A stretch of 64,000 nucleotides of DNA from Roseiarcus sp. (lineage in GTDB: Bacteria; Pseudomonadota; Alphaproteobacteria; Rhizobiales; Beijerinckiaceae), in the NCBI GenBank assembly GCA_050015575.1, contig JBEKBD010000001.1, positions 5,441 through 69,440 of the forward strand, in the 5' to 3' direction. Positions 6,868 through 36,689 of the stretch are shown here, in pieces (position 1 is the first letter of the stretch; every line of letters starts with the position of its first letter). The translations under genes and the position numbers were made by a program. Under the pieces are notes generated by a model. That model worked only from the letters and a program-made list of their open reading frames with translations. It was not told the origin of the DNA and made no database searches.

Positions 6868-7167
6868 TCACTGTGACGCCGGCCGGTCGGCGACGATCGA
6901 CAGCTTCACGCCGAGCGCGCGCAGCACGGCGCTGACGGTTTCGTAACGCGGATGCGCGCCTGCGCTCAACGCCTTGTAGAGGCTTTCGCGGCCGAGCCCC
7001 GCGTCCCTGGCGATCTGCGCCATGCCGCGAGCCTTGGCGACATCGCCGAGCGCGGCGACGAACACGTCGGCGTTCGGGTCTTCGGCGGCGACGGAAAGAT
7101 ATTCGGCGATGAGTTCGTCATTGTCGAGATAGGCCGCCGCGTCGAAGGGCGCGTAGGTCGTCGTCAT
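6868..7167 (-). CDS. Addiction-module antidote (HI1420-like HTH antitoxin)
   Basis: FDAAAYLD...[40 protein letters not shown]. Start overlaps the toxin stop. Confidence 0.9.
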
Positions 7168-7469
7168 AGTTTCATCTCCTTCAATTGGCGCGCCATGGCC
7201 TTCGCTCGCGCGATGTCCCGCTTCTGGGTGGACTTGTCGCCGCCAGTGAGCAGAACGAAAACCGTCGCCCCGTTTCGTGCGAAATAGACCCGATAACCCG
7301 CTCCGGCGTGGACGCGCATTTCGGAAACGCCCTCTCCGACCGGCTCGCAGTCGCCGAAGTTGCCGAAGGTCGCGCTGCGCAAGCGCGCCAAAATCCTCGC
7401 CTTCGCCTTCATGTCGGCGAGCTCCGACAACCATCGATCGAAGTCTGAAGACCGAACAAGGAGGTTCAT
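7164..7469 (-). CDS. Addiction-module killer, RelE/ParE-family toxin (HI1419-like)
   Basis: FDRWLSELADMKAKARILARL...GNFGDCEPVGEGVSEMRVHAGAGYRVYF...LLTGGDKSTQKRDI. ATG 7469 preferred because ATG 7487 lies inside the operator. Confidence 0.9.
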   Translation of the reverse strand: MNLLVRSSDFDRWLSELADMKAKARILARLRSATFGNFGDCEPVGEGVSEMRVHAGAGYRVYFARNGATVFVLLTGGDKSTQKRDIARAKAMARQLKEMKL

Positions 7470-11218: not shown

Positions 11219-11250
11219 GCGCGCCTCGTCTCGGACTGCGATGGCACCGC

Positions 11251-11592
11251 TCAGCTTTGGCCGGACTTGCCCACGATCGCCGGAAGATGCTGAGCCAGCA
11301 GATTGAGCGCGACGTTCGGGTCGACGCCGAAGTGTTGCGCGAGCTGCTTGACCTGATCGCTTCCCAGCGCCGCCTGGATCTGTTGCGGCGTGACGGTGAG
11401 ATTGGGGCCGTTGGCGAGCCAGGACTGGACTTGCGCGCCCAAGCCTCCCTGCTGCAATTGCGCCACCACGCCTTGCAGATCGCCGAGGTTGGTCTTCGCC
11501 AAGGCTGCCGGGAGCACGGCTTGCAGCTCCTCCGCGCCGATTTGGCCCAATGCGCTCTTGAGTCCGCCGGTCAAGTTGTCGAGAAGTCCCAT
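11251..11592 (-). CDS. YidB/DUF937 family protein
   Basis: MGLLDNL...LQQGGLGAQVQSWLANGPNLTVTPQQIQAALGSDQVKQLAQHFG...LAQHLP. Confidence 0.85.
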   Translation of the reverse strand: MGLLDNLTGGLKSALGQIGAEELQAVLPAALAKTNLGDLQGVVAQLQQGGLGAQVQSWLANGPNLTVTPQQIQAALGSDQVKQLAQHFGVDPNVALNLLAQHLPAIVGKSGQS

Positions 11593-11696
11593 GGTTCGCT
11601 CCGCTGGGCCGGCGCTGCGCCATCGCGGCCGGCGTGTACGATCATGTTGCCTGTCCATGCGCGGCCTGACAAGCCCAAGCCTGTCGCGACCAGGCC

Positions 11697-11733
11697 AAAG
11701 AGAAGGGCCGCCCCTTGCGGGAGCGGCCCTTCC
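11697..11733 (-). terminator. Rho-independent terminator candidate after the small ORF
   Basis: Minus strand AAGGGCCGC-U-CCC-GCAA-GGG-GCGGCCCUU followed by CUCUUU. Confidence 0.6.
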
Positions 11734-11784
11734 ATTGTCGCGACCACGCACAGATCGCTCGAGGTCTGGATCGCCTAGCGGCGA

Positions 11785-11859
11785 CTATGCGCGAAATTCC
11801 TGCGCACGGACAATGTTCCAGGTCTCGCGAAACTGGCATGGCGATTGACAATGAGACAC
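11785..11859 (-). CDS. 24-aa small ORF with 17-nt extended Shine-Dalgarno (rreB-like small mRNA)
   Basis: GAAAGGAGGTGATCCA-GTG start; peptide MSHCQSPCQFRETWNIVRAQEFRA; terminator downstream. Not in the ORF track. Confidence 0.65.
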   Translation of the reverse strand: MSHCQSPCQFRETWNIVRAQEFRA

Positions 11860-11983
11860 TGGATCACCTCCTTTCAGGTTGTTGACGACGCCGATCAAAA
11901 TAACGTGATTCGTCGATTTTCAAAGCCCGGATTTCGCGCATCGGCGATGCGTCGGCGGGATGGGGCGCCCAGACGCTCGGCGA

Positions 11984-13327
11984 TCACGCCGCCGCCTTCG
12001 CCACCGCGTCGCAGACGTCGTTGACCAGCGTGTCGACCAGGGCCGGATCGTCCGCCTCGGCCATGACGCGAATGACGGGTTCGGTCCCCGACGGGCGGAT
12101 GACCAGACGCCCCTTGGCGCCCAGCCGCGCCGTCGCCGCGGCGATCGCCTTGACCACCGCTTCGTCTTCGAGCGGGCGTCCGCTCTTGAAGCGCACGTTG
12201 CGCAACACCTGCGGCAGCGGGTCGAAGCGGCGGCAGACCGCGCTGACCGGCTTGCCCTGCTTTTGCACGACGGCGAGCACCTGCATCGCCGCCACCAGCC
12301 CGTCGCCGGTGGTCGCATGGTCGGTCAAAATGATATGGCCCGACGGTTCGCCGCCGACGTTGATGCCCTTCTCGACCATGCGCTCCAGCACGTAGCGGTC
12401 GCCGACCGCGGTGCGTTCGAGGCGAAGGCCGCGCTCGGCCAGCCGCCGCTCGAGCCCGAGGTTGGCCATGACGGTCGACACGACGCCGGGCTTAGCCAAG
12501 CGTCCGTCCGCCTGCCAGCTTTCGGCGATAACCGCGAGAATCTGATCGCCGTCGACGACGTGGCCCTTCTCGTCGACGATGATCATGCGATCCGCATCGC
12601 CGTCGAGCGCGATGCCGATGTCGGCGCGCATTTCCCGCACTTTCTGTTCGAGCGCCTCGGGAGCGGTCGAGCCGACGTCGAGGTTGATGTTGACGCCGTC
12701 GGGCTCGACGCCGATCTTGATCACTTCGGCGCCCAGCTCCCATAAAGCCTCGGGCGCCGTTCGGTAGGCGGCGCCGTTGGCGCAATCGATCACGACCCTG
12801 AGGCCGTCGAACGAAACCTCGCGCGGCAGCGTCCGCTTGGCGTATTCGATGTAGCGCGCCTGGACGTCGTCGATGCGCCGCGCCCGCCCGAGATCGGGCG
12901 ACTTGGCGAGCTTGGCGGACAGATCGCCGTCCATCAGCGATTCGATGCGCGCCTCGAATTCGTCCGACAGTTTGAAGCCGTCGGGGCCGAACAGCTTGAT
13001 GCCGTTGTCCTCGTAGAGGTTGTGCGAGGCGGAGATCATCACCCCGAGGTCGCAGCGCATCGAGCGCGTCAGCATCGCCACCGCCGGCGTCGGCGCCGGG
13101 CCGAGCAGCAGCACGTCCATACCGACCGAAGTGAAGCCGGCCACCAGCGCGTATTCGATCATATAGCCGGACAGGCGCGTGTCCTTGCCGATCACGACGC
13201 GGTGGCGGTGCTCGCCGTTCTTGAACGCCAGCCCAGCCGCTTGGCCGACCTTCAAGGCGAGTTCGGCGGTGATCTTGCCGTTCGCGCGGCCGCGAATGCC
13301 GTCGGTGCCGAAATACTTGCGCGCCAT
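11984..13327 (-). CDS. glmM: Phosphoglucosamine mutase
   Basis: [44 protein letters not shown]. Confidence 0.97.
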
Positions 13328-17008: not shown

Positions 17009-17083
17009 TGGTGGGCGATACAGGGATCGAACCTGTGGCCTTCCCCGTGTGAAGGGGACGCTCTACCGCTGAGCTAATCGCCC
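17009..17083 (-). tRNA. tRNA-Val (anticodon CAC)
   Basis: Reverse complement GGGCGATTAGCTCAGCGGTAGAGCGTCCCCTTCACACGGGGAAGGCCACAGGTTCGATCCCTGTATCGCCCACCA; cloverleaf, TTCGA loop, encoded CCA. Confidence 0.97.
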
Positions 17084-36613: not shown

Positions 36614-36689
36614 TGGCGCTCCCAAGGGGGATCGAACCCCTGTTTTCGCCGTGAGAGGGCGACGTCCTGGGCCGCTAGACGATGGGAGC
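36614..36689 (-). tRNA. tRNA-Glu (anticodon CTC)
   Basis: Reverse complement GCTCCCATCGTCTAGCGGCCCAGGACGTCGCCCTCTCACGGCGAAAACAGGGGTTCGATCCCCCTTGGGAGCGCCA. Confidence 0.97.

Follow-up and report, generated by a model that had tools for sequence, protein, structure and literature searches.

The 64,000-nucleotide (nt) stretch of Roseiarcus sp. DNA analysed here, referred to below as the window, carries on its minus strand a small mRNA of about 190 nt (roughly positions 11890 to 11697) which, judged by its sequence, is a true member of the Rfam family CC2171. As a preliminary description of the locus had recognised, it appears to be a self-contained transcription unit with an extended Shine-Dalgarno (SD) sequence, a GTG start codon, a small open reading frame (sORF) and a terminator, like the rre small mRNAs described by Hahn et al. 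(2016; PMC5711450). Taking the evidence jointly, we are fairly confident that the element is best explained as a CC2171-family small mRNA of the rre type, which would tether 30S ribosomal subunits and in which the act of translation, rather than the peptide, would matter. The family and the extended-SD concept are already known; since the former is in Rfam and the latter was published in 2016, with analogues stated in Rhizobiales and Caulobacterales (PMC5711450), the locus alone adds little. New with respect to the papers found are the proposal that the CC2171 "sRNA" is the same kind of molecule as rreB and rreR, the maintenance of its sORF at a fixed length with no protein-type constraint, the location of its start-proximal codons in a helix that covaries and adjoins the terminator, and the apparent presence of the identical module of 17-mer and GTG in Actinobacteria. 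These observations sharpen the question of why bacteria retain an mRNA whose binding to ribosomes is too good for it to be translated.

Family membership and layout of the element

A covariance search, as suggested in the preliminary description, assigned the element to RF01867 ("caulobacter sRNA CC2171"); rreB-like and rreR-like loci fall below the cut-off of this model. The Rfam cmscan match covers 11704-11883(-) at 77.2 bits (gathering cut-off 75, E = 4e-16) and is full-length (model positions 1-159 of 159), with a small margin above the cut-off. The model begins at cAAcaAuc, 8 nt before the 17-mer, and its consensus, which holds the 17-mer, the GUG and UCUCAUUGUC (block GAAAGGAGGUGAUCCAGUGUCUCAUuGuC), reads cAAcaAucGAAAGGAGGUGAUCCAGUGUCUCAUuGuC; within CC2171, conservation is thus highest in the block of the extended SD and first codons. 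The corresponding 5' block of the window, cAAcaAnnGAAAGGAGGUGAUCCAGUGUCUCAUUGUC, shows no mismatch at the uppercase consensus positions. In an alignment of 75 members (A1; plain MAFFT, not fitted to structure), the 17-mer is invariant and the leader motif (G)TCGTCAACAAC is conserved. CC2171 and the window element have in common the CAACAA leader, the 17-mer, GUGUCUCAUUGUC, a long-range helix to GACAAUG and the terminator. The Roseiarcus-type copy differs from the consensus in its interior hairpins, with low alignment confidence in the middle, and it lacks the anti-SD-like CCUC...GAGG pair of many CC2171 members.

CC2171 reportedly came first from a screen for small RNAs (sRNAs) in Caulobacter crescentus. 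The element is not "hidden", as it had been called, but belongs to an existing family that has been validated by Northern blot in Methylorubrum extorquens; the CC2171 passages of the preprint in question call it an sRNA with an unknown regulating condition and mention neither an SD nor an ORF (bioRxiv 10.1101/2022.01.24.477521). In Rfam, and in the CC2171 passages of the papers found, the family is treated as a non-coding sRNA, with no mention there of an extended SD or a sORF. A literature search on Caulobacter ribosome profiling found nothing specific to CC2171.

Along the minus strand, CAACAACCT is followed by GAAAGGAGGTGATCCA and then by GTG TCT CAT TGT CAA ... GCA TAG. The 17-nt extended SD, GAAAGGAGGTGATCCAG (11859-11875), is the complement of what we take to be the standard, well-known 3' terminus of alphaproteobacterial 16S rRNA. 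Its final G doubles as the base that opens the GTG (11859-11857), and a short 5' leader, CGTCGTCAACAACCT (11876-11890), directly precedes it. The sORF (11785-11859) has 24 codons, encodes the peptide MSHCQSPCQFRETWNIVRAQEFRA and ends at a TAG stop (11787-11785); within it, CCUGGAAC (11815-11822) carries an in-frame Trp codon (11820-11818). The 5' strand of a long-range helix, P1, is the CAUUGUC of codons 3-5 (His-Cys-Gln; 11847-11853), and its partner, GACAAUG (11739-11733), lies immediately 5' of the intrinsic terminator (11696-11732). The latter consists of a hairpin with a GCAA loop, GAAGGGCCGCUCCC-GCAA-GGGGCGGCCCUUC (11732-11702; predicted fold -27.3 kcal/mol), and a U-rich tail (UCUUU). 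The minus-strand 17-mer running into a GTG, the 24-codon frame and the GCAA-loop terminator all lie where the preliminary description had placed them. A promoter-like region precedes the element (11897-11924, with a -35-like TTGAAA at 11923-11918 and a -10-like TATTTT at 11902-11897); it is predicted only, as is a transcription start near 11885-11890. The 19-mer that includes the GTG has one copy in the window, remains the sole match there when up to 3 mismatches are allowed, and appeared in 0 of 100 dinucleotide shuffles.

The same layout is found in at least 120 alphaproteobacterial species. These were identified by a scan of one genome per species with the pattern GGAGGTGATCCAGTGTCTCAT, which gave at least 120 loci, and the conservation of the order SD, GTG, ORF and terminator that the preliminary description expected of relatives is thus borne out. 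Among the matches listed, to which all counts of loci below also refer, the host groups include Acetobacteraceae, Methylobacterium, Bosea, Microvirga, Caulobacter, Brevundimonas, Xanthobacteraceae, Beijerinckiaceae and Sphingomonadales, together with others. Closest among those listed are metagenome-assembled genomes (MAGs) of Roseiarcus, a genus placed in the Roseiarcaceae, Hyphomicrobiales; they come from peat, and the window sequence itself matches peat metagenomes. The nearest listed genome locus belongs to a Roseiarcus sp. MAG (L024) with the same gene order, in which the RNA element is 87% identical to that of the window and the GlmM, glutaredoxin and MoaA proteins are 88%, 93% and 82% identical, respectively; GlmM of Roseiarcus fermentans (L005) is 82.5% identical to that of the window. 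All 120 complete loci possess the 3' strand of P1 and, after it, a strong hairpin (median -25.7 kcal/mol); the elements have a median length of about 180 nt. Of the 79 related listed loci with a good sigma-70-like match, 71 have a -10 hexamer whose end lies 18-22 nt before GAAAGG, and the promoter motif CGAATCAC-N-TTAnnnT is common to the window and the Roseiarcus relatives.

Alphaproteobacterial elements of the CC2171 type also occur on contigs of MAGs labelled Gemmatimonadales, Hydrogenophaga, Parcubacteria and Mycobacteriaceae (L004, L046, L050, L118). The labels of L046, L050 and L118 probably reflect binning contamination. A true outlier is conceivable in the case of L004, with its divergent leader, its 14-codon sORF and a CC2171 score of only 36 bits.

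Reading frame, RNA structure and proposed mechanism

Conservation of the sORF concerns its frame and its length. Frame 0 is open for 19-30 codons in 115 of the 120 listed loci (median 24, standard deviation 2.6), against just 18/120 and 23/120 for frames +1 and +2, where lengths are widely scattered. The Roseiarcus relatives (L024, L065, L042, L102, L005 and L038) have 24-25 codons. The CUGG within CCUGGAAC, which hardly varies across the family, reproduces the CUGGAUC found at the 16S 3' end and gives an in-frame Trp (TGG) at 33, 36, 39, 42, 45 or 48 nt in about 100 of the listed loci; changes in sORF length thus come in threes. Stop codons are TGA in 58 loci, TAA in 35 and TAG in 27.

No protein-type selection on the peptide was found in a substitution test of 68 close pairs. 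Substitutions fell on codon positions 1, 2 and 3 in the numbers 208/266/204, with 104 synonymous and 400 non-synonymous codon changes, and shifted frames gave the same picture; in the control gene, glmM, the corresponding figures were 43/21/139 and 118 versus 53. The interior of the peptide is entirely different between orders. Codon 2 is UCU throughout: when metagenomes were scanned for the 17-mer and GTG, with the T wobble in codon 2 excluded (at least 120 loci), none of the 120 loci listed was of the MSH type with another wobble base. Our reading of these patterns is that the open frame and the position of the stop are probably under selection and that the peptide is not.

Pairing of P1 and of the outer terminator stem holds in 95.1% of A1 cells, against 20-75% for slid controls; double changes number 39, where 8.7 are expected from shuffles, and none of 500 shuffles reached the observed number. 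Pairs of the outer terminator stem covary. Compensatory changes also occur at the first Cys codon, as in L093 (CAUAGU/ACUAUG, giving Ser), L100 (GGU, Gly) and L006 (CGC, Arg); since this codon pairs in P1, it is under RNA constraint. The emphasis that the preliminary description had laid on cysteine is not supported, as Cys4 lies in the covarying helix and Cys8 is not conserved in the family. The predicted fold of the window RNA (11890-11697) has an energy of -87 kcal/mol (z = -4.57 versus shuffles) and a probability of 0.99 for P1, and the 17-mer is predicted to be mostly unpaired in it (mean pairing probability 0.30).

In the window a second CATTGTC stands just after the Trp codon (11809-11815, minus strand) and a second GATCCAG lies in GGCGATCCAGAC after the stop (11766-11772, minus strand). 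These could pair alternatively with GACAATG and with CCTGG, respectively, and the predicted fold pairs the second CCAG with CUGG. Apart from the window, only the Roseiarcus relatives have the second ATTGTC.

In many family members the sequence of the 16S end recurs internally as CCUGGAUCnnnGCCUC, which is able to pair with the SD; the window copy retains just its CCUGG. Pairing of GAUCCAG in the SD/start region with the mid-ORF CUGGAUC is possible in 88.5% of A1 cells, with an invariant 5' side. By prediction this pairing prevails in about 21% of members, close relatives among them, and is weak in the window RNA. Family-wide, the SD is more complementary to the ORF interior than in shuffles (median z = -1.6, with 42% of loci below -2); in the window RNA it is not (z = -0.28). 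Sequestration of the SD by the mid-ORF sequence was accordingly set aside for the window element and is kept as a lead at the level of the family.

We propose that the mostly single-stranded 5' 17-mer would base-pair with the whole of the free 16S rRNA 3' end and so tether a 30S subunit. Initiation would be hindered in three ways: the duplex would run through the spacer into the GUG, GUG is a weak start codon, and codons 3-5 would be locked in P1 beside the terminator. For these reasons initiation would be rare and the RNA would sit on ribosomes. Translation, when it occurred, would have to open P1, and this opening could set the conformation of the RNA and its decay or turnover. Conservation of frame and stop, together with an unconstrained peptide, suggests that the act of translation matters and not its product. 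The steps agree with measurements on rreB in Bradyrhizobium, which fractionates with ribosomes in dependence on its 5' SD extension, is weakly translated, and becomes more stable when a stop codon is substituted for its start codon (PMC5711450).

The strongest competitor, although an unlikely one in our estimate, is a non-coding regulatory RNA whose 17-mer acts in trans on the 16S 3' end, for instance in 30S maturation, hibernation or anti-SD titration, the ORF being incidental. Rfam types CC2171 as an sRNA, its structure is strong and its substitution pattern non-coding-like, rreB co-sediments with 30S subunits (PMC5711450), and the identical 17-mer precedes unrelated sORFs, including those of the actinobacterial Ms_IGR-5. 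An incidental ORF, however, would keep neither its frame, open for 19-30 codons in nearly all of the listed loci, nor its stop through exchange of TGA, TAA and TAG. Moreover, in all classes found the GTG stands at the 17-mer end and is followed by a sORF of fixed length, rreB-EGFP fusions do undergo translation, and cells overexpressing rreB grow no more slowly (PMC5711450).

Less probable again is that the element encodes a functional peptide of 24 residues (MSHC...W...A), with RNA features that would only tune its amount. The conserved frame and length of the ORF and the use of all three stop codons are compatible with such a gene, as are the frequent MSHC (of which MSH was fixed by the species scan pattern itself), the in-frame Trp and the Ala that is the last residue in 70 of the 120 listed loci; the RreB and RreR peptides, too, are conserved within their own clades (PMC5711450). 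Against it stand the even spread of substitutions over codon positions and a ratio of synonymous to non-synonymous changes equal to that of shifted frames, unlike glmM. The Cys4 codon, moreover, co-varies with its pairing partner to give Ser, Gly or Arg, codon 2 is fixed as UCU with no synonymous variant in 120 other listed hits, and the peptide interior differs wholly between orders. RreB and RreR are unstructured, and their overproduction gave no phenotype (PMC5711450).

Neighbouring genes, transcription and yidB

The element lies between glmM (11984-13327, minus strand), upstream of it, and a YidB-like gene (11251-11592, minus strand; Pfam PF20159). Upstream glmM was found in only 4 listed loci, all of the Roseiarcus type. 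A tblastn search with the YidB-like protein of the window found no homologue in the fetched flanks of the 120 related loci listed, and clustering of flanking ORFs found no neighbour conserved in more than 11 of 121 listed loci. The genomic context of the element is thus not conserved. The Rfam scan of the window also identified two tRNA genes (17012-17083 and 36617-36689, both on the minus strand), which are unrelated to the element.

Transcription was examined in three metatranscriptomes from the same study as the DNA run that holds 91% of the sampled words of the locus. Contigs lie on 11799-11889 and 11722-11746, at a depth of 12-38, and none lies on 11893-12100 in the three libraries. When RNA runs were searched with just the 211-nt element, none was listed. 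The contigs support transcription of the element, the ends of which they leave unmapped. An origin of the RNA from the 3' untranslated region of glmM was rejected, given that glmM is upstream in only 4 listed loci and that the RNA contigs miss both the end of glmM and the spacer.

A promoter-like site, TTGTCA-17-CAACAT (11672-11644, minus strand), lies between the terminator and the YidB-like gene, and a contig from an RNA run (X16) spans yidB (11225-11628) and stops short of the small RNA. These observations are consistent with yidB having its own promoter. They bear on a further proposal of the preliminary description, that the element could act as an attenuating leader; as a 5' untranslated region with a leader peptide, it would control read-through into the YidB-like gene (11592-11251). 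The element is indeed co-oriented with yidB, with about 105 nt from the end of the terminator to the yidB ATG, and a sORF followed by a terminator resembles an attenuator. As in attenuators of the trp type, a short ORF and then an intrinsic terminator stand upstream of a co-oriented gene. Unlike in those systems, too much sequence separates the stop codon from the terminator (45 nt to P1 and 52 nt to the terminator stem) for a translating ribosome to reach or mask the latter; the peptide has no run of regulatory codons, no alternative anti-terminator pairing is evident, and the downstream gene is not conserved. Even the Roseiarcus relatives that share glmM lack yidB in their fetched flanks, as do all of the 120 related loci listed, and no neighbour family is common to more than 11 of 121. 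With a separate promoter-like site before yidB and a yidB contig that excludes the small RNA, we regard attenuation of yidB as very improbable. The idea of a chance match or a decayed fragment of a plus-strand rRNA operon, prompted by the identity of plus-strand positions 11859-11875 to a 16S 3' terminus, can practically be dismissed: the flanks are neither 16S nor spacer, the window has no rRNA match, the 19-mer is absent from all 100 shuffles, and conservation of the whole 180-nt element in at least 120 species refutes it.

Several points weigh against the account of the element as a ribosome-tethering, translation-dependent small mRNA. An rRNA gene was absent from the window (Rfam scan) and from all fetched loci, so that the 16S 3' end of this organism was not seen; complementarity of GAAAGGAGGTGATCCAG to that end would follow from the standard alphaproteobacterial terminus and from Hahn et al. 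(2016; PMC5711450). A strict consensus scan of the window reported neither promoter nor terminator at the element. The terminator was missed by this gapless scan because its stem has a one-base bulge; given the negative result, the promoter is counted as predicted only. The RNA evidence is contig-level community data, in which several contigs come from related strains and one extends 109 nt upstream of 11889. The transcript ends, the 30S binding and the translation of the Roseiarcus element are all three what we infer. Overexpression of rreB left growth unaffected (PMC5711450), which makes a simple role as a ribosome sponge doubtful. Finally, the substitution test used pairs of related sequences that are not independent of one another, and the conservation of the N-terminal MSHC, the Trp and the C-terminal Ala could represent some selection at the level of the peptide, inseparable by this test from RNA constraints.

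Relation to rreB, rreR and other extended-SD small mRNAs

Hahn et al. name four alphaproteobacterial orders only; rreB, with 14 codons, is found in Bradyrhizobiaceae and rreR, with 18 codons, in Rhodobacterales (PMC5711450). Their paper mentions neither Rfam nor CC2171, and a literature search brought up no subsequent paper on either gene. In the metagenome scan described above, each class found among the matches listed places its GTG precisely where the 17-mer ends and has a sORF of class-specific fixed length, and the 17-mer and GTG of the window are identical to those of the rreB-like, the rreR-like and every other fetched locus. The MSRKVLE... class, which is marine and fits rreR, has 18 codons (23 of 120) and scores 40-44 bits on CC2171 (L133, L153). 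The MISLS...W..GEVRV class has 21 codons (2 of 120; 69.6 bits on CC2171 for L141). Most numerous is the MRDHQGRTGG... class, with 23-31 codons (40 of 120), of which L146 and L152 gave no Rfam match. The loci of this MRDHQGRTGG..SGST.. type (L146, L152 and about 38 others within L129-L236) have a terminator about 137 nt downstream and a GC content of about 67%.

Two further classes resemble Ms_IGR-5 (RF02471), an actinobacterial RNA that the papers found describe only as an uncharacterised sRNA. The ...GEVIVT class has 13-15 codons (12 of 120) and, in L136 (4306-4497) and L198 (1576-1767), scores 59-60 bits on RF02471 (cut-off 45); the ...PTVICEVV.. class has 14 codons (27 of 120) and scores about 32 bits, below that threshold. 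In these two loci, and also in L124, L132 and L171, GAAAGGAGGTGATCCAGTG precedes sORFs of 13-14 codons, for example MGILHWTGEVIVT and MTYSPTVICEVVPS. Because GAAAGGAGGTGATCCAGTG and the sORF sit in loci that match RF02471, small mRNAs with an extended SD seem to occur in Actinobacteria too. The 14-codon VICEVV class proved to be actinobacterial and Ms_IGR-5-like, and not rreB; no tRNA-Gly was found beside it.

One locus, L138, was called rreB-like from its 14 codons and an adjacent tRNA-Gly, both of which have been reported for rreB, and not from a published rreB sequence. Its element (7028-7185, minus strand), with the sORF MSFTKRCHLAGIAR, lies beside tRNA-Gly(tcc) (7350-7423, plus strand), and it matches the CC2171 model over its full length at 42.5 bits, below the cut-off. 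L077 (2007-2176, MSHCQRCHLAGVAR, 52 bits) and L117 (5539-5699, 70.9 bits) are intermediate in sequence between the CC2171 type and the rreB type, and rreB may thus be a shortened offshoot of the CC2171 family. On present sequence comparisons, the rreB and rreR types are divergent relatives that lie below the CC2171 cut-off, with the window element in a sister class, and CC2171 appears to be the most widespread class of rre small mRNAs.

A more general reading, which we offer as a tentative possibility, is that CC2171 and rre RNAs are translation-gated, ribosome-tethered RNAs and not peptide genes, with selection on the length and frame of the sORF and each rare translation remodelling the RNA, in the window element by opening P1. 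The "non-coding" CC2171 of Rfam would then be the largest rre branch, and at least six sORF classes, Ms_IGR-5 and the MRDHQG... class among them, would have recruited the 17-nt module. If true, this points to a general, undescribed way to sense or use free 30S subunits.

The window element and rreB both have a 17-mer, in the window complementary to the standard alphaproteobacterial 16S terminus, that ends in the G of the GTG, together with a very short ORF and a length of about 165-190 nt; rreB has its own promoter and terminator, and the same is predicted for the window element. The rreB sORF has 14 codons versus 24 in the window, and the L138 peptide is unrelated to that of the window beyond its initial MS. 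The rreB type lacks the CAUUGUC/GACAAUG helix and has instead, about 20 nt downstream, a UCACCUC that can pair with the SD core. It lies beside tRNA-Gly, and the window element lies between glmM and yidB. In codon count, peptide and tRNA-Gly neighbour alike, the window element thus departs from what marks an rreB orthologue. The rreR-like marine loci share the 17-mer, the GTG and a short sORF of fixed length, and differ in their 18 codons and their peptide. As rreB-like and rreR-like loci score 40-44 bits on CC2171, versus 77.2 for the window, the element is not an rreB orthologue; of the earlier suggestion of a member or analog of rreB/rreR, the part that holds is that of an analogue or distant relative. 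Ms_IGR-5 shares the identical GAAAGGAGGTGATCCAGTG, a sORF of 13-14 codons and a terminator about 160 nt downstream, but belongs to another phylum and has no similarity to the window element outside the 17-mer.

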